From a virus (taxonomy: Duplodnaviria > Heunggongvirae > Uroviricota > Caudoviricetes), in the IMG/VR virus record IMGVR_UViG_2574179916_000007: a stretch of DNA of 10,113 nt, one strand, 5' to 3'. Of this stretch, positions 172 to 10,113 are shown in pieces; within the stretch, counting starts at the first letter, position 1, and each line of letters begins with the position of its first letter. The notes beneath the pieces are model-generated. The model worked only from the letters and a program-made list of their open reading frames with translations. It searched no databases and had not been told where the DNA came from. Position numbers and translations under genes: made by a program.

Positions 172-2301
172 CTATTCCTCAATACCTAACCTGCTTGAAA
201 CCTCAGGCATAACAGTAACCTGAAGGGTTTTTGATGAATCTGTGTTTTTAATTGCTATGCTGATATTGTCAGAAGTGCTGTTATTGTTTGACACTGTTAT
301 AGAGTTTGCATCCACCCCGAGTTTCGAATAAGCATCAGCAAAACTAAGACCAACACTTCCACCAACAACTCTATATGAACCATCAATTCTGAATGACGAT
401 ATATTGTTATTGCTAACATCTCTAATTAGAACCCATATAGAAACACCCCTGAAAACAAGGCTTGCCCCTGATGGTATTTGAAGTGATACAATTCCTGTGG
501 AACCGGGGGGGATACTGCCAGTATATTTAGTTCCGTGCAGATATTTCCCCGGTAGGTCTAAATACGATGTGTCTGGATGTAATAAATTATGTATATGTCT
601 GCTATCTATGCTTCCAGACAGAACCATAGAATCATTGCCATATTCAATTATCCTTCCACCATCGTTACTTATTGTAAGTAATCCTTTGTTTCCTTTATTA
701 TTTCTAACAGTTATATCAGAAGAATCCAGGCGGACAATTGATATATTTTTTTCTGATCCATGACAATAATTTGATGAAATTTCACCTGTAACAAGTGACG
801 TACATAAAATGTCTGAACTTCCATCACTGTCGCCAGTAATAGTGTTGCAGGAAATTAATGCACCATATACCAGACCTGTTGGAGATTCTCCAAATTGCTC
901 TATAGTAATCCGTTTTGTGGTATTTGCTGATATGGTTATATTATGAACATCGTCAGTTTGCGATGTTACTTTGATCCTTGATGAAACTGTATTTCCAGAA
1001 ATAGTAACATTACTTGTATCATCCACCCATAAATATGACGAAAACGTATTACCTGATATGACTGAGTTACTCACCATTGAGTTCTCAAGCTCACATGAAC
1101 CATAGCTATTGTTATGGTCATAATTTCCTATAATCCTTACAAATCCATTCTGGTTAATGAAGTTGTATGATGTTGCATTTTGTCCGCCATAAGTTGAGTT
1201 ATGTGATGTTTCAGCATTTGTAACGCCTATATGTTGAAAATGACCGGCATTTACAGAATCAGGAGCAACTGATGTACACCCTATTACTTTTGTGTTTTTG
1301 ACAATTCTTGAATTAGGGTCATTCTCCAAATAATAGTTTTTTGCAACAAATGCCGTAGAGTAAAAGAAACCTTCAAATCTATTAAATAAAATCTGAATAT
1401 CGTCATAATCTCTTTGGTCTTCATTTGCATAGCAATAAAATGCTCTTGAAGACTCGGAGTAATCCTTGCATTTCTGAACGCCAGATAAAAGTGATCGGAT
1501 TCTGCTAGATTTTATTCTAAATCCGTTGTGAATTAACGTTGCATCACCAACTAATGTTATTGGCTTAAACAATTCAACCTTATCAAAAACAAATTCACCA
1601 CCATAAAATCCAAGTATAGCCCCTTCTGGTACTGCATTAATAGCATTTTGAATTGCTACAGTATCATCTGTTATGCCGTCTCCTTTTGCACCAAAATCAC
1701 GAACACTAATGGTGTCTCTCATCTTATCCTGGAACGTTCGGTACACAGCCCCAGAACCATACTGAATAAACCAACCAAAACCACCAACAACCCCGGCGAT
1801 TGCAGCATCGACATAATTACGCATTGAGCGATTATTTACAGCATCCTGCTCAAGTGATGGATCTGCAAGGTTAGAAATTCTGTTTTGCTTTGCATCGTAA
1901 TATTTTGCAAGCAGAGAGGGCTTCATCAATGCACGTCTGAACCACCCAAAACATTGCTGGATCAGCATCGTCAGGTAGTCAAAGGCATCTTCATGCACTT
2001 CGGGGAAAAATTTTCCCTGATTGCGAAGGTCTGTCTCCTGCACTACATCAAGCACACGATCTATCGTAATTCGCCATCCAGTAGCAAGCGGAGACGGAAG
2101 AACCACAGAACCGCCACTATAAGTGCCCGCCCCAGTTACCGTATAACCGGTATCCAGGACCAATTCTGTTACGTTTCCGTTCAGATCAGACACCTGAACA
2201 ACCAGGTCTGATTTTCTGAAAATTCGAAAAGTATACGGAAACGATGTCGTAACGCCGTTACCGGTGTATTCGTTGTGGTCAACTTCGGTTGAGACCGTCA
2301 T
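172..2301 (-). CDS. Phage tailspike / tail fibre protein with T7 gp17-like N-terminal adaptor and pectate-lyase-like beta-helix (putative polysaccharide depolymerase)
   Basis: 709-aa ORF with ATG at 2301 and GGAG about 8 nt upstream on the minus strand. The N-terminal ~150 aa (YTGNGVTTSFPYTF...VVQVSD...) resemble the T7-type tail-fibre N-terminal domain. The motif DFGAKGDGITDDTVAIQNAI is typical of pectate-lyase-3 / right-handed beta-helix proteins. The C-terminal part is Ser/Asn/Thr-rich and the gene is visibly AT-rich. Confidence 0.85.
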   Translation of the reverse strand: MTVSTEVDHNEYTGNGVTTSFPYTFRIFRKSDLVVQVSDLNGNVTELVLDTGYTVTGAGTYSGGSVVLPSPLATGWRITIDRVLDVVQETDLRNQGKFFPEVHEDAFDYLTMLIQQCFGWFRRALMKPSLLAKYYDAKQNRISNLADPSLEQDAVNNRSMRNYVDAAIAGVVGGFGWFIQYGSGAVYRTFQDKMRDTISVRDFGAKGDGITDDTVAIQNAINAVPEGAILGFYGGEFVFDKVELFKPITLVGDATLIHNGFRIKSSRIRSLLSGVQKCKDYSESSRAFYCYANEDQRDYDDIQILFNRFEGFFYSTAFVAKNYYLENDPNSRIVKNTKVIGCTSVAPDSVNAGHFQHIGVTNAETSHNSTYGGQNATSYNFINQNGFVRIIGNYDHNNSYGSCELENSMVSNSVISGNTFSSYLWVDDTSNVTISGNTVSSRIKVTSQTDDVHNITISANTTKRITIEQFGESPTGLVYGALISCNTITGDSDGSSDILCTSLVTGEISSNYCHGSEKNISIVRLDSSDITVRNNKGNKGLLTISNDGGRIIEYGNDSMVLSGSIDSRHIHNLLHPDTSYLDLPGKYLHGTKYTGSIPPGSTGIVSLQIPSGASLVFRGVSIWVLIRDVSNNNISSFRIDGSYRVVGGSVGLSFADAYSKLGVDANSITVSNNNSTSDNISIAIKNTDSSKTLQVTVMPEVSSRLGIEE

Positions 2302-2404
2302 GTTAAATCTCCAGATAGTCGCAGCACCCGTTGCGCCGCATATCTGGTTATTCTATTACCTGAAAAACCATATATGGATAAAAAGACTATAAATACCAAT
2401 AGAT

Positions 2405-2421
2405 ATTACCTTTCGGGTAAT
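2405..2421. promoter_or_regulatory. Operator-like inverted repeat ATTACC-TTTCG-GGTAAT (copy 1 of 3)
   Basis: Perfect 6-bp arms with a 5-nt spacer, 76 nt upstream of the ATG at 2497. The same TTACC-N5-GGTAA core recurs at 3854..3870 and 4914..4930. Confidence 0.5.
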
Positions 2422-2457
2422 TTGCAAAACGTGCTGGATAGCAAACAAATTATTTGT

Positions 2458-2477
2458 TACTGTATAAACATACAGTT
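2458..2477. promoter_or_regulatory. LexA (SOS) box
   Basis: TACTGTATAAACATACAGTT has perfect CTGT-N8-ACAG half-sites and 17 of 20 matches to the consensus TACTGTATATATATACAGTA. It lies 20 nt upstream of the ATG at 2497 in an AT-rich promoter-like stretch. Confidence 0.7.
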
Positions 2478-2496
2478 ATTGCATGGAGAAGATAAG

Positions 2497-2754
2497 ATGC
2501 AGCAGTATCACTATCCACTGGAAGACGGATTTACCGAAAGGATTCACACGCCGGGAGGCGTCAGGTCACTGGTGGAGGGATCGCACTTGATGAAATTACT
2601 CCGGGATCTCGATAAGGATGGATTTAATGTCGATGGCCCACTTGCCGAACTGACTGCACTGATTAACTACGTCACCAGCTCACAGATGTCTATGCAGGAT
2701 CTGCAAACACATCTCGACTATTGTGCCGAACAATTACGAAAACAAACCACATAA
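2497..2754 (+). CDS. Small (85 aa) antirepressor-like protein, a stand-alone homologue of the Ant C-terminal domain; probably SOS-inducible
   Basis: ATG at 2497 is preceded by GGAG 8 nt upstream. The product (LMKLLRDLDKDGFNVDGPLAELTALINYV...MQDLQTHLDY) aligns with the C-terminus of the 4138..4829 product (LMNLLNQLQEDGHDVSGAAAELTTMFCYI...LRDIQTHAEY). The longer ORF-track start at 2374 would place the LexA box and operator repeat inside coding sequence. Confidence 0.6.
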   Translation: MQQYHYPLEDGFTERIHTPGGVRSLVEGSHLMKLLRDLDKDGFNVDGPLAELTALINYVTSSQMSMQDLQTHLDYCAEQLRKQTT

Positions 2755-2776
2755 AGAAAAGGCCGCGAAAGCGGCC
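2753..2776 (-). terminator. Rho-independent terminator for the minus-strand two-gene operon
   Basis: Perfect hairpin GGCCGC-GAAA-GCGGCC at 2761..2776, followed on the minus strand by a U-rich run (complement of AAAGAAAA at 2753..2760). It sits directly after the stop of the 2778..3284 gene and also just after the stop of the plus-strand small gene. Confidence 0.6.
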
Positions 2777-2777
2777 A

Positions 2778-3284
2778 TTAACAGTCGTAAAATTCTGGGT
2801 CCCACAAACTAGCATCGCGCGGCATGGATTCTAACTTTTTCAGCCGCAAAATTCTGTCACACTCGACAACTAATTTTTGCTTCTGCTCGTCAATTTCTAC
2901 TGTCTTATGTGCTGGTTCATCCCAATAATCCAGAAGGAAGGCATGGCGTTCAGATGTGACCAGATAAATCACATACACGTCACTGGTTGGGATCTTTTTA
3001 TGCTTGTTAGTGGTCTTGTCTTTCTTCCCAGACGCCCAGTTTTTCCAGCATTGTTCCGTACCGCTCTCACCAAACTTGTCAGTATAGTTTCCGATGTTTA
3101 CGTGAACGTGGCGTATGTGATATTCCAGCATTTCTTTCGGTGGATCCCGAAACAGAGTGTCCTTTCCGAAATCCTTATGATGACCGTAGCGCCAGTGATC
3201 TATGAACGCGTTTTTGATAGGTATTAGCTCAGGGTCCTTCCCAAAAATTCCAGGGTGAACCAACCCCTGGAATTTATTCAGCAT
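2778..3284 (-). CDS. Putative toxin of a two-gene module (168 aa); tentatively YafO-like mRNA interferase
   Basis: Start taken at the internal ATG (3284..3282), which overlaps the stop of the upstream gene in the arrangement GATGCTGAATAA (translational coupling). The ORF-track N-terminal extension would overlap the upstream gene by about 100 nt. His-rich motifs DFGKDTLFRDPP...LEYHIRHVHVNIGN and VIYLVTSERHAFLLDYWDEPAH resemble, from memory only, the YafO family (FGRD...HIHL...PEPH). Confidence 0.65.
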   Translation of the reverse strand: MLNKFQGLVHPGIFGKDPELIPIKNAFIDHWRYGHHKDFGKDTLFRDPPKEMLEYHIRHVHVNIGNYTDKFGESGTEQCWKNWASGKKDKTTNKHKKIPTSDVYVIYLVTSERHAFLLDYWDEPAHKTVEIDEQKQKLVVECDRILRLKKLESMPRDASLWDPEFYDC

Positions 3285-3693
3285 CGTCGTAGAGCTCCTG
3301 AGCCATATCTTCGGCAGTGCGTGCAAACATCCTGCGCGAGATTGCATGAGATTTCTCGACGGACATCTTTGGGACCTCATGCATAACATTTTTGGGAGTT
3401 GTGTAATAGCCTATTACAATTTTCACACCTGACTTATGATTAATATCAGCATAATATACTTCTTGTTCAGACGTTTCACGACGAACATAATCTGCCAGTT
3501 TTCCACATTTAAATTCCCCTCCCTGATGTTTTAAAATCTCCTCAACTGCACTATTTTCAGTGAAATACCGAATAAGAAATTTCTGTCCAGACTCTTCAGC
3601 ATGAGGTATAACAGTATTATTGGAAGCCCGAACAATGGCCTTACTCAATATTTCATGGTCTTTATTTTTTTCTGATTTCCTCAAATGCTGCAT
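3274..3693 (-). CDS. Putative antitoxin / partner protein (139 aa from first ATG) of the two-gene module
   Basis: ORF ending 8 nt inside the start of the downstream gene. The first ATG (3693..3691) has AAGAGAG about 8 nt upstream; alternative GTG (3723) or TTG (3729) starts would give up to 151 aa. The C-terminus is acidic (EDMAQELYDDAE), as in many antitoxins. No recognisable DNA-binding motif and no family identified. Confidence 0.6.
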   Translation of the reverse strand: MQHLRKSEKNKDHEILSKAIVRASNNTVIPHAEESGQKFLIRYFTENSAVEEILKHQGGEFKCGKLADYVRRETSEQEVYYADINHKSGVKIVIGYYTTPKNVMHEVPKMSVEKSHAISRRMFARTAEDMAQELYDDAE

Positions 3694-3825
3694 TACTGTA
3701 GCTCTCTTCGTGTTCACGGGCACCCCCAACTACCTCTAGGGTAAACATTCTATCGAAAGTATACGCATACTGGCAAAAAAATAGGCAGGTATTTTCTGAA
3801 ATGGGATAAATCAAACCATATAGGG

Positions 3826-3855
3826 TTGAAATAACGTGAGTTATGCATTTATTAT
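3826..3855 (+). promoter_or_regulatory. Candidate sigma70 promoter reading toward ant
   Basis: TTGAAA (3826..3831), 18-nt spacer, TATTAT (3850..3855). The operator repeat copy 2 begins at the 3' edge of the -10 element. Confidence 0.35.
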
Positions 3856-3870
3856 TACCTTTTCGGTAAA
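3854..3870. promoter_or_regulatory. Operator-like inverted repeat ATTACC-TTTTC-GGTAAA (copy 2 of 3)
   Basis: TTACC-N5-GGTAA with perfect 5-bp arms, overlapping the predicted -10 and transcription start of the ant-proximal promoter. Confidence 0.5.
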
Positions 3871-3962
3871 TTTACATTGCACTCCTCTTGTGCCATAGTA
3901 ATCGGGCACTGGCAAAATCCAGTGCCGGGATTGGTCTCCCGGATTACTACAGAGGCACATAT

Positions 3963-3982
3963 GCCGCATAAGCGGTTTTTTT
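3963..3982 (+). terminator. Terminator-like short hairpin plus U7 within the ant upstream region (possible attenuator or sRNA 3' end)
   Basis: GCCGC-ATAA-GCGG(T) stem-loop followed by TTTTTTT on the plus strand. The stem is short (4-5 bp), so this is weak on its own. Upstream hairpins lie at 3905..3926 and 3925..3942. Confidence 0.35.
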
Positions 3983-4137
3983 ATGTGTAAAGCGCACCTA
4001 TTCTATGGTGGGCTGTGTGGGGGCACCGAAAGGTGCGCCGGGTTCCTTTGTAGCCGGTAAGACCAACTCTGCACAGTTCACCACCATCTGATTGGTCTCA
4101 GCGGTGGTGATTAACCTAACTACAAAGGTGATCGCTA

Positions 4138-4829
4138 TGAATACCAAACCTTCCATCTTTTCCTTTGAGTCATCCTGCCAGATCCGTATGTTCATGATTG
4201 ACGGAGAACCTTGGTTTGTCACCAAAGATGTGTGCAATGCTTTGAATATTGATGTTACACAAGCGAGAAAACTTGATAAAAAAGGCTGGAACAAAAAGGG
4301 GCTGTATTCAATACAGACCCCTGGTGGAATACAAGAACTATCCATCGTTTCAGAATCAGGTCTCTACATCCTTATTCTGCGTTGCAAAGAGGCAATGACT
4401 GAGGGAACGAGAGCATTCAGATTTCTTGAATGGGTTACAGGTGAGGTTCTTCCTCAGATCCGCCGCACCGGAAGTTACATTAAAAACTCGCTCCCGCAGG
4501 AAGAACGCATAAAGATGGTTGCCGACCAGGTAGCCAACGCCACAGCATCAGCAGTGATGCAGGCAATGAAGGTAGAGAACAAAACCTACAGCGCCCCACT
4601 GAAGCCCGGCTACCGCAGCCTGATTCATTCGCCGTCTGGTGTTCTCGGCCTGACGGAGAACTCACTGCTGATGAATCTGCTAAACCAGTTACAGGAAGAC
4701 GGGCACGACGTATCGGGCGCGGCGGCGGAGTTGACCACCATGTTCTGCTACATCGTCGGTGTGAGCAAATGCCTGCGTGATATCCAGACGCACGCGGAGT
4801 ACATCAACGACAAAGCAGGGTTCTTCTGA
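4138..4829 (+). CDS. ant: Phage antirepressor (Bro-N N-terminal domain plus Ant/KilA-C-type C-terminal domain)
   Basis: ATG at 4138 with AAAGGTG 7 nt upstream; the ORF-track start at 4092 is a non-ATG alternative. The N-terminus (FESSCQIRMFMIDGEPWFVTKDVCNALNI...SESGLYILILRCKEAMTEGTRAFRFLEWVTGEVLPQIRRTGSY) matches the Bro-N pattern. The C-terminus is homologous to the 2497..2754 product. Confidence 0.85.
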
Positions 4830-4913: not shown

Positions 4914-4930
4914 ATTACCCGATTGGTAAA
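4914..4930. promoter_or_regulatory. Operator-like inverted repeat ATTACC-CGATT-GGTAAA (copy 3 of 3)
   Basis: TTACC-N5-GGTAA with perfect arms, between the candidate promoter and the GAGG ribosome-binding site of the 4951 gene. Confidence 0.5.
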
Positions 4931-4950
4931 GTCGATTGGTTGAGGTTCAT

Positions 4951-5277
4951 ATGAGCAGAAGATATGTCAAGGAGCTGGCTATAGAGTCTGGCACCCCTTT
5001 GGGTATCGTTCCTGGCTCCAACTATGCCAAGGCTTTAAACCGAGACTCTGTCGTCAAAGTTATATCAAGAGACATGAATATGGTCGGAGACGATCTCAGA
5101 CGGTCAGAAAATCGTGTTTATGCTGAATATATAGTAAAGAACGGAAAAAAAATTGCAGCGCCTGCTGGCGGAAAATGGGCAATAGTGACAGGGAAAAACT
5201 CAAATGCAAGAGGAAAACCAGAAGCTAAAGGAATGTCCTTCGACAAATATGCAAAAATCTATTGGGCAACCAAGTGA
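4951..5277 (+). CDS. Hypothetical basic protein (108 aa); possible regulator
   Basis: ATG at 4951 with GAGG 5-6 nt upstream; the ORF-track start at 4936 is TTG. Lys/Arg-rich product with no recognised motif. Operator copy 3 sits in its leader. Confidence 0.55.
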   Translation: MSRRYVKELAIESGTPLGIVPGSNYAKALNRDSVVKVISRDMNMVGDDLRRSENRVYAEYIVKNGKKIAAPAGGKWAIVTGKNSNARGKPEAKGMSFDKYAKIYWATK

Positions 5278-5752
5278 TAACGAAGAAACTGAGTTCGAGG
5301 AAGTTGAGGAAGGGCTAAGTAACGAGATCATTCAACACCCAGATGCCTTCACAAGAGTTCTTGATCGCCCTGAAATTCAGGAGATAGTTGTCGCTCACCA
5401 TGCGTTTCAGGGTCCGCTTCCTCCCCCCTATCTGCTTCGCGGGTATCAGGATATTTTACCTGATGCCCCCGAACGCATCTTCCAGCTGACGGAGAAGGAG
5501 TTTGCTCACCGCCAGAAAATGGAGGAAAAGGCACTTGACGGGGCTATTAATAGAGATAAACGTGGGCAGTGGTTTGGCCTGAGTGCAACTATTTTTACAG
5601 TAGCTTGTGCAACATTATTAGGTTTAACAGGTCATGAAGTTCTAGCTGGCACAGTGATCGGTACAGTTGTTGCAGTGGCTGGTATTTTCGTTCTTAGACA
5701 AAAACCAAGCATCAAGAAGAAATCTGAAGACAACAAACCTGAAGAAAAGTAA
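5204..5752 (+). CDS. Hypothetical membrane protein (182 aa): acidic N-terminal region and two predicted C-terminal transmembrane helices
   Basis: ORF overlapping the upstream gene in another frame. Start is ambiguous: ATG 5204 (GGGA about 9 nt upstream) or ATG 5249. Hydrophobic stretches WFGLSATIFTVACATLLGL and LAGTVIGTVVAVAGIFVL are followed by a Lys-rich tail. A conserved-looking QGPLPPPYLLRGY motif is present. A strong terminator follows. Confidence 0.55.
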   Translation: MQEENQKLKECPSTNMQKSIGQPSDNEETEFEEVEEGLSNEIIQHPDAFTRVLDRPEIQEIVVAHHAFQGPLPPPYLLRGYQDILPDAPERIFQLTEKEFAHRQKMEEKALDGAINRDKRGQWFGLSATIFTVACATLLGLTGHEVLAGTVIGTVVAVAGIFVLRQKPSIKKKSEDNKPEEK

Positions 5753-6036: not shown

Positions 6037-6888
6037 TCACTGTGCAGTTTTCGCTGATCGATTTTCAGCTCTAAATTCAAGAACCGTTTCAATATTTCTT
6101 TCCTTCAGCATATCAATAACATTTTTATTCATTTGACTATCACTGGTTAATAACTGGTAAACGTTGCTTCTCTCTTTATCAGAGTTTTCTTTAACAGCTG
6201 CTTTGCATGCCAAATGCTTATTGAAATTTTCTACATCGCTAGTACAGGAATTTACGGCTGCTGATGAAATATCAGACGCTGAAGAAACACCGTCATCCAA
6301 ACGTTTTATAGCATTTTCTATACATGAGTTAAGGGAATAAACGACAACTGAGCGATACCCTTCAGACGCACACCATTCTAAATTTCTTGAAGGATCGAGT
6401 GGTTTTACTTCGCTGGATTGAATTAACTTGTCAAAAACTGACTTATATTCAATCTGTTTTTTATCTATAGCCCATACTTCAGTAGCTGATTTATAATTCC
6501 CCGTATGCCTATTAACATCAAATCCATGTTTTATAAGCAAATCTGCCCATGAAAGATTTATTGATTCATTGTTATGAGGCCATTTTCCTGTCAGAACCGC
6601 CCCCATAGACCCCATATATCCGCCATATGATGGTATAGCACCATGGCTCAGTAACTTCTCTGCAACCACAGGGCAATTAATTACATAAGAGGCGTAAAGC
6701 CCATTCCATAAAGCCCCTCTATAGTAATCGCCACGATTAGGTTCTTTTAAGTCGATAGCCTTTGATAATTGTTCGCACGTTTTGCATGCATCAAAGTTAT
6801 CCTTATTGCATTGCAATGAACTGGCAGCTGTAGGATTTACAGAGACTATTGAAAGCACTATGCCAAAAAACAAATTTATTTTTTTCAT
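6037..6888 (-). CDS. Secreted or periplasmic protein of unknown function (283 aa), AT-rich moron at the end of the structural operon
   Basis: ATG at 6888 lies 1 nt after the TAG stop of the upstream 1065-aa gene (TAGGATG), implying coupling. The N-terminus MKKINLFFGIVLSIVSVNPTAA is a signal peptide and is not a lipobox. The mature protein has multiple Cys. The gene is visibly lower in GC than the upstream gene. Segments VAEKLLSHGA and ADLLIKHGFDVN weakly resemble ankyrin-repeat helices. Confidence 0.75.
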   Translation of the reverse strand: MKKINLFFGIVLSIVSVNPTAASSLQCNKDNFDACKTCEQLSKAIDLKEPNRGDYYRGALWNGLYASYVINCPVVAEKLLSHGAIPSYGGYMGSMGAVLTGKWPHNNESINLSWADLLIKHGFDVNRHTGNYKSATEVWAIDKKQIEYKSVFDKLIQSSEVKPLDPSRNLEWCASEGYRSVVVYSLNSCIENAIKRLDDGVSSASDISSAAVNSCTSDVENFNKHLACKAAVKENSDKERSNVYQLLTSDSQMNKNVIDMLKERNIETVLEFRAENRSAKTAQ

Positions 6889-6889
6889 C

Positions 6890-9800
6890 CTATTTCATCT
6901 GCTCTTCAACTTTATTTAGTAATGGTGATATCGCCCACAGATTCTGAAAAGGTAGCATTTTACGGACAGCGTGGGTTTGCTGGCTGTCAAATTCTCCGTT
7001 AAGTACACCATTTGCAACCGTCGCGGCATCACCGCCAAGATCAAAGGTAGGACCAAGTAAAGCACCAATAGCATTACGACTCTGAAACCTTGATACCGGA
7101 GGCGCACCAAACATCGCGCCAAGACCAAACCTACCGCCGCTTATGTTCTCAACGGTATTCAGCGGCTCAGAGAGCCAGCCAAGCATTCCGCCCCGGTCGA
7201 TCCCCTCTTTCACAAGGTTATTCCAGCTGTAGTCGATATCGCGACCGCTTAACTTCTGTTTCATCATATAGACCATTGAGCCAAGCGCAATCGTGCCAAG
7301 CGCACCAAGATAGAATGCAGCATCGCCCTGCTGGATACCAGATACTAGCACCCTGTTATGCTGTGCGAAGATAAACGTTTTGAACTGCGTGATCATCTTC
7401 CAGCCTTCTTTACTAAAAAACAGCGGTGTATCACCTACGCCAGGCGTTACAATCACTGAGTCTACATCTTTCAGCACTGCAGACTGGAAAATCTCTCTAG
7501 CGAAACGGTCATCCCACAGATGACTATGCCCGGTTAACAGCCCGTCCATATCCTCTCCGTGCTTCCCGAATTGCTCCCCGATTCGGCGCAGAACATCTTC
7601 ATTGATGCCGACCTGTGCCATCTTCCGCATTTCACTTTTGGAGAGCGTGCCACCAGCAGAAACTTGGCGAGCCGCGTCAAGTATCCTCGACTGCACTATC
7701 ATCCCAGACCATGATTTAAGTGCGCTGTTCCACTGATTCATCAGCGTCCAGTTACCGAATTTCTGCGTCATCCAGTTCAGACCTCGCTCAGCGGCGCTTC
7801 TCCGGCTATAGGGGTCAGTAAGATCCGCTATAGCCTTTGTGCGCGTAGACAGGACATAATCAAGCCCAACTGCCATTTCTCGCAAATCCCTGGTTGCAAT
7901 TTTCACTGAGTCCATATTTTTAAGCATGCTTACCATTGGTCCGAGAGATTTTCTCAGGCCATGCTGCATCATCGGTCGCATCAGATCAGTTGCAGCGGAG
8001 ACGGTCATTCCACCAAGCAAACGGAGGAAGTTAATATTCCTAGCAACTCGCCCGGCACGAACAAAGAAACTGCGTGGATCTTGAGGTGCGCCGTAAGTAC
8101 CAAGCAGTCGGTCACGCATAGCCGTAATATCCCTAATATCAGCCTCCCGTTGCTTCTCAAGAGCTGCACGTCGTTTAGGTGTTTTAGCCTCTTTTATTAG
8201 CCGGGTATATTCCTCACTAACCTGACGGATTTGCTCCCCCATATCTTTACGGCCAAACTGCGCAGTCAGCTCAATTTCTGGTGCCACCTGCCGGAGATAA
8301 CTTTCCATGATGTAGTTAACATCTGATTCAAGAAAATCTTCTATACGCTCATCAGGAATAAGCAGCGTTCGGCTTTTAGTGAAACCAGCCCGACCAACGA
8401 GTCTCTCTGGGATAATATCGGCTGGTACAAGCCCGGAAGGTGCGCCTATTATTTTATTCACGATCTCGTCAGCAGCGTCCTCTGCTTCCTCTCGGGATAG
8501 AGGCTCCATCTGCTTCAGTGCTCGCTCGCGGCTTGCATTCAGCCTTGTGGTTGAATTTGCCCGTTTTTGCAGTCGGCGAAGCTCAGAACGATATTTCCGT
8601 GGATTATCCAGCAACTCCATATGGCGCTGATAGACAGGAAGCTCACTCTTTGCCTGCGCTATATCATCAAGGCGTGTTTTAAGGTCAGAGCTTTCTTTCA
8701 TCATTCTTGCCTGAAGTTTTTCTGATGAAGTCTCGGCCAACTCTTTTTCTATTCTTGTAAGACGCGCCTGTGTGTCAGTCTCCTGAGATATAAGCTTATT
8801 TCGTTTATCCAGTTCTTCCATGAGTAGAATTTTTTTACCAGACCATTTCTCCGCTTCAGCGATTTCACTAGCGAGAGCATCAGCGCGCGGTGCTGATTCC
8901 TCTGCAGTTTTTAGCAATGAATTTATCTTTTCAATTCGCTGACCTGCTTTGTCAGCACCTTTGGCACTAATCCCTTGTATCCAGTTGGCAATTCGCCCTC
9001 TGAATTCAGTGCGGTCGGAAAGTATCTTATCGAACTTATAAATGCGGGGAAGATAACTCTTCGCCGTCACGACATCGATATCCTCAGGAAGGATCCCCAA
9101 TTCCTGCATACGGGCTTTTGTGGTCTCAAAAATGGGGCGGATTCTGGCGGCTGCTTGTGAAACCTCAGGAATATCACTCTGATCACCACGGCGCATAGCC
9201 ATGCCAACAGCTTCATTGAAATCAATAAAGTTCATCCTCTTCACGCCGCGGGCGCTGACAGATTTGCTGTACTGCTGGTAAGCATCACGAGTAGCTTCCA
9301 TCTGCTTATAAAGCATGGCGTCGTATTGCTTAATCTTAGTCTCGACTGCCGTAAACGTAGCCAACCCCTCATCATTTTTGGCGAAGAAATAGTTATTTTC
9401 GGCAAGCTGCTGGTTAATCTGACGGGAAACAAGAGATGGTGATTGCGCCAAGCGGCCAGCAGGAGTGACACTCAACGTTTTGTTAGCAAGTCCAAGTCCA
9501 GCAAGCTGTTCCTGATCGAGTGTGGTATTGAAAACCTGAGCTGCACCAATGCTTTGAGGAGAATCCATACCTCGCAAATGATTACCTACTGAGTTAACCA
9601 CTGCCTCGCGCGCGCTAGGTCCAGCAAGTAGCTGTGCACCAGCACCAAGGATCCCACCAACGAGAGCATCAACAACAACGTTCGATACGCTCTCCATCGG
9701 TGAGCGAGCTTCCTGAGTGGCCTGCAATGCGGCCTCTGAAGCAACACTGCCAGCAGCATTGGCTAAAGCAAAACGTCCGGCTGTTTCTGCAATACGACCG

Positions 9801-10087
9801 CCACGAACGACAGCGCCGAACGGAATAAACATAGAAATCGCATTGAATGGATCTGCTAATCTCATTGCTACAGAAGAGACTGTACCAGCAAATCCCAAGC
9901 CTGAATTGTATTCCATGTCAGCTCTCTGCTGATCGATTCGATGTTTAATTGCCATTGTTTCTTCATGCGAACCGGAGTTGATAAACGAATCTGCAAAATC
10001 TTCATAGCCTTTAATATCTGCTGCATCGTTATCAAATGGGTTATATCCTTCAACCCTGTTAGACTGGCCCCCTGAATCTCCAGACAA
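6890..10087 (-). CDS. Large virion-associated protein (1065 aa); candidate internal/ejection protein or tape-measure-like protein
   Basis: Uninterrupted 3.2-kb ORF. It is predominantly alpha-helical with charged coiled-coil-like central segments (for example [34 protein letters not shown]) and Gly/Ala-rich hydrophobic segments near both ends. It occupies the last position of a structural operon before the immunity module and tailspike. The start is probably TTG at 10087, 6 nt after an in-frame TGA; the next ATG is at 9955. No catalytic motif was recognised. Confidence 0.8.
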
Positions 10088-10113
10088 CCAATATCACTTA
10101 AATAAGTGATAGT

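Follow-up and report, generated by a model that had tools for sequence, protein, structure and literature searches.

This locus raises the question of what the short gene facing the tailspike gene of this phage does, what controls it, and how it relates to the full-length antirepressor gene close by. The window, meaning the whole stretch of 10,113 nucleotides that was analysed (IMG/VR record IMGVR_UViG_2574179916_000007, Caudoviricetes), holds at 2458-2754 a match to the LexA consensus followed by an 85-codon open reading frame, which a preliminary description of the sequence had read as an SOS-controlled small antirepressor gene. That observation is confirmed, and the interpretation placed on it is partly supported. 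ORF 2497-2754 is very probably the ant gene of an epsilon15/phiV10-like (Uetakevirus-type) coliphage or prophage, an orthologue of SPC32H Ant that would be silenced by LexA, released in the SOS response and active in dismantling the repressor Rep. The gene lies among the following features:

172..2301, minus strand: tailspike gene, with a pectate-lyase-like domain, divergent from ant
2485..2491, plus strand: Shine-Dalgarno sequence GGAGAAG, 5 nt before ATG 2497, conserved in E. coli, Salmonella and Enterobacter phages
2497..2754, plus strand: ant, encoding an 85-aa antirepressor, orthologue of SPC32H Ant by its homology matches
2761..2776, no strand assigned: GC-rich hairpin GGCCGCGAAAGCGGCC from the terminator scan, between ant and the convergent leftward genes

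Homology places the encoded protein clearly. By tblastn it is 88% identical to the product of a gene in KC911856 annotated 'ant: anti-repressor protein', and this annotation and degree of identity hold for both SPC32H and SPC32N Ant. A phmmer search matches it over its full length to chain E of PDB 5D50 ('Anti-repressor protein', 86 aa; E=1.3e-47), with residues 2-85 aligned to residues 3-86 of the crystallised chain. PHROG 450, a family labelled "unknown function", is matched at E=1.4e-47. When phage genomes were searched with the protein by tblastn, 35 records were retrieved, and every classified record among those inspected belongs to the genus Uetakevirus (epsilon15-like). The profile search against the KilA-C/Ant families, suggested in the preliminary description, was negative: in Pfam and NCBIfam no family, the Pfam ANT, KilAC and P22_AR domains included, exceeded its cut-off for the small ORF, and the lone match, DUF724, stayed below it.

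The mechanical ORF reaches back to ATG 2374, which gives 126 aa and runs through the LexA box. ATG 2497 is preferred as the start (85 aa) because the crystallised homologue has 86 aa and because the Shine-Dalgarno sequence and this ATG are conserved in ten related phages. Gene callers often over-extend ant to 126-127 aa, across its own LexA box. At the other end of the gene, the terminator scan found the T-run of the hairpin on the minus strand only, and the epsilon15 record has an annotated terminator at the equivalent position.

The near-consensus LexA box noted earlier just upstream of the gene is borne out, and the elements of a putative ant promoter can be placed around it:

2435..2440, plus strand: putative -35 hexamer for ant, TGGATA, separated by 17 bp from the downstream TACTGT, assigned from sequence
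2458..2463, plus strand: putative -10 hexamer for ant, TACTGT, coinciding with the left arm of the LexA box, assigned by analogy with the 186 p95 layout
2458..2477, no strand assigned: LexA box TACTGTATAAACATACAGTT, with 17 of 20 positions shared with the consensus TACTGTATATATATACAGTA

Between the end of the box and ATG 2497 lie 19 nt. A match of 17/20 was reached in none of 200 shuffles, and the CTGT-N8-ACAG pattern occurs a single time in the window, at 2460-2475. In the complete EC.W1-9, SPC32H and epsilon15 genomes, no site other than the one preceding ant agrees with the consensus at 15 or more of 20 positions. An alignment of the intergenic region between tailspike and ant, made from ten phages of Escherichia, Salmonella, Enterobacter and Klebsiella, shows the box to be conserved and its distance to the ATG to be fixed across these four host genera. 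The CTGGA.A block 17 bp upstream of TACTGT is likewise invariant in the 10 phages. For phage 186, the annotation of the p95/tum promoter places the -10 on the first six bases of the LexA site; with this layout as a guide, the hexamers assigned here would make the LexA box overlap the -10 of the ant promoter. Between SPC32N and SPC32H, the tailspike-ant region differs only by a C to A change in the right ACAG half of the LexA box. In SPC32N, Kim and Ryu reportedly found in 2013, Ant is made constitutively as the result of one base change in the LexA site. The 88%-identical orthologue and the conserved LexA box together point to the SOS-controlled small antirepressor that had been proposed.

The genomic context is conserved as well. 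The tailspike-ant intergenic region spans 195 bp, and the two genes are divergent in 10 phages of Escherichia, Salmonella, Enterobacter and Klebsiella; SPC32H, epsilon15, phiV10, Tyrion, BUCT554 and the Klebsiella and Enterobacter phages have this arrangement in common. As in the SPC32H type, ant is a stand-alone gene of ~85-86 aa at the end of the virion gene block. A second small ORF that follows ant in a Klebsiella prophage was compared and is not a tandem Ant paralogue. At a DNA identity of at least 90%, ant was found in 529 of 5426 complete E. coli genomes (about 10%), the LexA box being present with it, and the E. coli matches inspected are labelled "hypothetical protein". Correct naming of the gene would show how these prophages, O157-converting phiV10-type phages included, sense DNA damage.

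Conservation of this kind bears on a different origin that could be imagined for the ORF, namely a decaying partial duplicate of the C-terminus of the large antirepressor, preceded by a LexA box that matches by chance. The resemblance to the neighbouring antirepressor, pointed out earlier, is real (BLASTP, 42% identity over 74 aa, against residues 149-222 of the large protein; E=7e-16), it is confined to the C-terminal third of the large gene, and CTGT-N8-ACAG alone arose in 21 of 200 shuffles. The full 20-mer box, by comparison, is absent from all 200 shuffles and is conserved across phages. Moreover, ant is intact, with ~85-86 aa, in SPC32H, epsilon15 and BUCT554, all of which are without the large antirepressor gene; its frequency among E. 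coli genomes speaks against decay; and a homologue has been crystallised (5D50) and is functional according to a secondary source (PMC9638917). The conservation pattern rules the duplicate out, and hardly any credence can be left to it. The ORF is best read as an intact ant gene with a LexA site of its own.

The examples named in the preliminary description, 186 Tum and the Gifsy antirepressors, hold as functional analogues, and it might be supposed that the small gene belongs to the Tum or the Gifsy GfoA/GftA families. The principle agrees, in that a small protein made from behind a LexA box puts a non-cleavable repressor out of action (PMC3121763), and the layout of promoter and LexA box agrees with that of 186 p95. 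The sequences are nevertheless unrelated: BLASTP against Tum gave E=0.07 and no meaningful alignment, and the small Ant does not align with the Gifsy-1 ORF that immediately follows the dinI homologue, an ORF chosen by its position downstream of dinI only, following Lemire et al. (PMC3121763). Gifsy-1 STM2616/AnrP was also compared with the small ORF, and no similarity was seen. No DinI domain was matched by Pfam in the small ORF, the window has no dinI gene, and the full-length match is to another solved protein, 5D50_E. Membership in either family is ruled out at the sequence level and deserves almost no weight beside orthology to SPC32H Ant.

If the small gene encodes an SPC32H-type Ant, its target would be Rep. 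The rep gene lies outside the window, and the type of the cognate Rep was taken from the epsilon15-like coliphage EC.W1-9 (PP445227), to which the window is 99.97% identical over 10,066 nt. The EC.W1-9 repressor has 194 aa, matches 5D50_A (E=4e-42) and is 42% identical to SPC32H Rep. The domain search found HTH domains only; the S24 peptidase domain, responsible for self-cleavage, was not found. A repressor of the EC.W1-9 type, being without self-cleavage, therefore needs an antirepressor if it is to respond to SOS. Kim and Ryu are said to have reported in 2013 that SPC32H Rep escapes cleavage in the SOS response, and the Ant/Rep mechanism of SPC32H was reportedly established from 2013 to 2016, by that study and one of Kim et al. 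from 2016. SPC32H Rep is described as a tetramer on DNA that contacts two sites (PMC9638917). The SPC32H Ant tetramer is described as binding two Rep dimers and so disrupting the Rep tetramer (PMC9638917, PMC9986798), and the C-terminal domain of Rep as serving both tetramerisation and Ant binding (PMC9986798). A review counts the 2013 work of Kim and Ryu among the systems in which an antirepressor is freed by LexA self-cleavage (PMC7380047).

The following course of induction may be proposed. In the lysogen, a LexA dimer would occupy 2458-2477 and, since the box lies over the putative -10 (TACTGT), ant would be silent. On DNA damage, RecA would become active, LexA would cleave itself, and the ant promoter would fire, so that the 85-aa Ant would be made. 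By homology with the SPC32H Rep-Ant complex, an Ant tetramer would then hold the C-terminal domains of two Rep dimers, and the DNA-bound Rep tetramer would be broken up. With Rep gone from its TTACC-N5-GGTAA operators at the early promoters, the phage would enter lytic growth. For this particular phage, LexA binding, the promoter hexamers and Ant-Rep binding are predicted from sequence. Since the two Reps share 42% identity as against 88% for the two Ants, the Ant-Rep interaction surface might differ from that of SPC32H. As a separate observation, an IS element seems to interrupt the source prophage, and its induction may therefore not yield phage.

The operators invoked here were recognised as a repeat. 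The sequence TATTACCTTTCGGGTAATTT at 2404-2423 occurs again at 3853-3872, and its core is a perfect TTACC-N5-GGTAA palindrome:

2350..2377, minus strand: tailspike-facing promoter-like module, CCATATATGG (2377-2368) followed by GGTAATAGAAT (2360-2350)
2406..2420, no strand assigned: TTACC-N5-GGTAA palindrome, predicted Rep operator, in the tailspike-ant intergenic region
3855..3869, no strand assigned: second palindrome copy, flanked by the leftward 139-aa gene and isrK

The shared operator repeat of the preliminary description is thus real. The window has 3 perfect copies of the palindrome, EC.W1-9 has 11 and SPC32H has 10, where about 0.03 would be expected, and every perfect copy in the latter two genomes is intergenic. 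Three palindrome sites, some of them imperfect, lie between rep and the cro-like gene, and others stand before the early-left operon, the terminase gene and the head operon. The copy at 3855-3869 abuts the -10 of a predicted promoter, TTGAAA-18-TATTAT, and the -35 of another, TTTACA-17-CATAGT. In the epsilon15 record, the equivalent sites, including the one between tailspike and gp19 (the Ant orthologue), are annotated as protein_bind "repressor; lysogeny". The excess of copies, their intergenic positions, the sites between rep and the cro-like gene and the epsilon15 annotation are the grounds for reading the repeat as, very probably, the Rep operator. A TTACC half-site-like sequence also occurs inside the ant coding region, as an inverted repeat, and looks like chance.

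Dual control of ant by LexA and by the operator, also put forward in the preliminary description, is another matter. Rep at 2406-2420 would in that case repress or modulate the ant promoter as well, and output would require both loss of LexA and release of Rep. The palindrome is almost certainly a protein-binding site by its sequence pattern: its arms are invariant in ten phages save for one phiV10 base, its spacer varies, and the 10-11 copies per genome far exceed chance. The label of the equivalent palindrome in the epsilon15 record and the three sites between rep and the cro-like gene are in keeping with Rep binding, the distance from palindrome to LexA box is near-constant in the 10-phage alignment, and a Rep tetramer that contacts two sites (PMC9638917) could act from afar. 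The geometry at ant is nonetheless unfavourable, in that the palindrome ends 15 bp upstream of the putative -35 and is centred near -57, whereas in the clear early promoters palindrome and -10 are immediate neighbours. Sigma-70 candidates with the palindrome lying on the core promoter of ant, TTGCAA-17/18-ACAAAT/CAAATT, were considered and set aside as weak; the promoter scan did not report them.

The palindrome at ant moreover forms part of the tailspike-facing module. EC.W1-9 and SPC32H have the order palindrome, CATATnTGGTT and GGTAATA(G/A)(A/T)T again ahead of the head operon, a place without an ant gene, and the ten aligned phages have the blocks of the module conserved. Were Rep to repress ant, SOS induction would also be opposed or blocked, Rep being the target of Ant. 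In SPC32N, finally, the palindrome is intact and the point change in the LexA box is the only one; it is here that Ant is said, from the 2013 work of Kim and Ryu, to be constitutive. The -35 geometry, the tailspike-facing module, the SPC32N sequence and the opposition to induction all make dual control doubtful, and it is considered unlikely. Control of ant by LexA, with the palindrome as a very probable Rep operator, is the preferred reading.

The large antirepressor gene further along the window is preceded by RNA elements of a different kind:

3906..3982, plus strand: isrK-family small RNA, Rfam RF01394, 74.7 bits against a gathering score of 50
4001..4088, plus strand: C4 antisense RNA, Rfam RF01695, 78.6 bits against a gathering score of 45
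4120..4128, plus strand: CTACAAAGG, predicted target of C4, covering the ribosome-binding site of the large antirepressor gene
4137..4829, plus strand: large antirepressor, 230 aa, with Bro-N (Pfam, E=1.9e-13) and an Ant-like C-terminal domain
4581..4811, plus strand: Ant-like C-terminal domain of the large antirepressor (residues 149-225), matched by 5D50_E (E=9e-14)

The large protein matches PHROG 130 'anti-repressor Ant' (E=4e-51), and PHROG 450 matches the small and the large protein alike; for P22_AR_N, the Pfam search of the large protein gave only a match below the cut-off. A C4 loop, CCTTTGTAG (4045-4053), is a perfect 9-nt complement of CTACAAAGG (4120-4128), and a second complementarity, of 7 nt, joins 4060-4066 with 4092-4098. 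The order isrK, C4 and antirepressor is also found in phiV10, ZX5 and Tyrion. Since the isrK and C4 RNAs precede the large gene and a LexA box the small one, the sequence supports two antirepressor-type genes with different inputs at this locus, as had been suggested: LexA for the small gene, and isrK/C4 antisense RNA for the large one.

Beside ant, the large gene is part of an accessory module of ~4 kb, which consists of two leftward genes, isrK, the C4 RNA, the Bro-N/Ant-domain protein and membrane and secreted proteins. PADLOC found nothing among the neighbouring uncharacterised genes. The large protein is 81% identical to ORF4 of vB_EcoP_ZX5, with a near-identical C-terminal half and a different Bro-N half, and is on that account a mosaic; a large protein search returned close stand-alone homologues only. 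Judged from the genomes compared, the small ant is a conserved core gene of the genus and the Bro-N protein is accessory. It is likely that the accessory Bro-N protein gained an Ant-type domain, and not the reverse. Of the earlier statement that the small gene is a paralogue of the Ant C-terminal domain, the homology stands, and the direction it implied is probably to be turned around.

The domain common to both antirepressors makes a two-input antirepression circuit testable. A joint reading would have the shared Rep-binding domain form a two-input switch on one Rep, together with mixed tetramers, Rep feedback and induction in trans; it is offered tentatively, as something of a long shot. In such a switch, the small Ant would report DNA damage via LexA, and the Bro-N/Ant protein would report lost C4/isrK immunity, for example on superinfection or through crosstalk with a P1-like immI system. 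Since SPC32H Ant is tetrameric, the paralogous domains might assemble into mixed tetramers, and feedback of Rep on ant might come in through the Rep palindrome lying between ant and tailspike. Because Ant is conserved at 88% and Rep at 42%, Ant made from this probably IS-disrupted prophage could induce related heteroimmune prophages in trans. What is modestly new here is that the neighbouring antirepressor, under C4/isrK control, carries a domain homologous to the SOS Ant; in the accessible literature, no statement was found of a domain common to an SOS Ant and a C4/isrK-controlled Bro-N antirepressor.

Among known systems, the large antirepressor resembles the immI locus of P1 and P7 (c4 - icd - ant), where C4 also lies upstream and its loops are complementary to the ribosome-binding region; an icd-like leader ORF did not come to notice here. 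It further resembles isrK-orf45-anrP of Gifsy-1, with isrK directly upstream; there, IsrK exerts translational control of the antirepressor operon according to a review (PMC7380047). Unlike the Gifsy-1 protein, it combines Bro-N with a domain like SPC32H Ant and is unrelated to AnrP, and the genome is that of an epsilon15-like podovirus. A further counterpart is the locus of vB_EcoP_ZX5, in which the 81%-identical ORF4 adjoins an identical small ant gene, although the Bro-N half of the large antirepressor in the window differs from that of ORF4. Overexpression of ORF4 lowered lysogens about 1000-fold (PMC9782041). The ZX5 study analysed the Bro-N antirepressor and leaves the small LexA-controlled ant unmentioned (PMC9782041), and in the ZX5 record the small gene is annotated as hypothetical.

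The small gene is comparable to tum of phage 186 in having a LexA box over its putative promoter, with the -10 formed by the left arm of the box, and in its product being, by prediction, an antirepressor made in the SOS response against a non-cleaved repressor. It differs in that sequence similarity to Tum is lacking and that Tum comes from a P2-like myovirus; Tum has 146 aa, and its C-terminal half is DinI-like (PMC3121763). GfoA, GftA and GfhA of Gifsy-1, -2 and -3 and AntC of N15 are likewise small LexA-controlled antirepressors. According to the same study, these are encoded outside the immunity region, bind the repressor and are able to affect other prophages in trans, and the Gifsy genes lie in a dinI-led operon and yield A2B2 complexes (PMC3121763). 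SPC32H, in contrast to this A2B2 stoichiometry, combines an Ant tetramer with two Rep dimers.

The nearest counterpart is the Ant/Rep pair of SPC32H (PDB 5D50, 5D4Z). The two Ant proteins, of 85 and 86 aa, are 88% identical, and both genes are divergent from tailspike; the two phages also have the LexA box and the palindromic operators in common, and the homologous Rep is without a cleavage domain. The differences lie in the host, E. coli as against Salmonella, in Rep, which is only 42% identical, and in the roughly 4-kb accessory module beside ant, which is absent from SPC32H. Because its nearest relative is an 88%-identical orthologue with a crystal structure, the small gene is an already known system, SPC32H-type Ant, met in an E. 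coli relative.

The small antirepressor gene ant is often annotated from an upstream ATG. In many database entries (protein clusters P0004 and P0026-P0032, one of these over-extended clusters holding 833 member sequences), the call corresponds to window 2374-2754 and gives 126-127 aa, so that the predicted protein crosses its own LexA box. The gene was found in 529 complete E. coli genomes, and the matches inspected were labeled 'hypothetical protein'. In three Klebsiella phages (L006, L010, and L011), the LexA box has ATGT, not CTGT, as its left half (columns ~170-190 of A3, the tailspike-ant intergenic alignment), giving the site ATGT-N8-ACAG. The change may weaken the site or set another threshold for induction.

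The window runs past the phage sequence at 10067-10113, into the terminal part of a multicopy IS3-family element, which we take to be IS2. Among 5426 E. coli genomes, 4699 contain this element, and the median copy number is 3. Because the insertion interrupts the gene for a large virion protein (1129 aa in coliphage EC.W1-9), the source prophage is probably defective, yet its SOS-controlled ant gene is intact. The first difference between the window and EC.W1-9 lies in the tailspike gene at ~504-510, a run of seven G residues against six. The tailspike ORF is an intact 709 aa in the window and is split into CDSs of 624 aa and 47 aa in the EC.W1-9 record; the G-run difference is due to a sequencing error in the homopolymer or else reflects a phase-variable tract.

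Beyond ant lie two overlapping leftward genes, preceded by a predicted promoter (TTGCCA-18-TAGAAT) and by a palindrome with one mismatch (3730-3744):

2778-3293, minus strand, 171-aa protein, PHROG 1651, unknown function
3274-3693, minus strand, 139-aa protein, PHROG 9503, unknown function

Neither had a match in Pfam, NCBIfam, or PADLOC, and the pair is absent from Salmonella phage SPC32H and from L015, the stretch of phage vB_EcoP_ZX5 that was compared. A moron, or a pair serving defence or exclusion, is a possible identity for these genes.

Directly upstream of the Bro-N antirepressor gene are two RNA genes:

3906-3982, plus strand, isrK-family RNA
4001-4088, plus strand, C4 antisense RNA

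The ribosome-binding region of the antirepressor gene is complementary to the C4 loop sequences, with targets at 4092-4098 and 4120-4128 (plus strand). Together, isrK, C4, and the Bro-N antirepressor form a predicted P1 immI-like control module harbored by an epsilon15-like phage. The same gene order is present in phiV10, vB_EcoP_ZX5, and Tyrion. In vB_EcoP_ZX5, a CDS annotated as 'ash family protein' (L015 5455-5568) overlaps the C4 RNA (5441-5526); this CDS is probably an annotation error, an ORF called across the gene of a non-coding RNA.

Further downstream are a third perfect palindrome and two genes that are candidates for lysogenic conversion or exclusion:

4915-4929, palindrome, 18 nt before a 109-aa ORF starting at 4948
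5204-5752, plus strand, DUF2335 membrane protein
6037-6888, minus strand, 283-aa protein whose N-terminus resembles a signal peptide, PHROG 6118, unknown function

The tailspike gene and the head operon are both preceded by one composite promoter-like module, in which the TTACC-N5-GGTAA palindrome is followed after 25-37 nt by CATATnTGGTT and, 5 nt later, by GGTAATA(G/A)(A/T)T:

Window 2350-2420, minus orientation
EC.W1-9 (L003), 9730-9835
SPC32H (L004), 3175-3280 and 20013-20137

In front of the head operon, the module is longer by an insert of 12 nt, roughly one turn of the helix. At the CATATnTGGTT position, an IHF site is annotated in the epsilon15 record.

Across the whole genomes of EC.W1-9 and SPC32H, perfect TTACC-N5-GGTAA palindromes number 10-11 per genome, against ~0.03 expected, and nearly every operon head bears one, late genes included. 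Their position at operon heads suggests a dispersed repressor regulon resembling that of P1 C1. Both phages use the identical palindrome, despite repressors (Rep; rep gene at L002 573-1157) that are only 42% identical, while the E. coli and Salmonella phages have Ant proteins (ant, window 2497-2754) that share 88% identity. This pairing of a conserved antirepressor with divergent repressors hints at possible cross-induction between heteroimmune prophages, as has been shown for the Gifsy phages.
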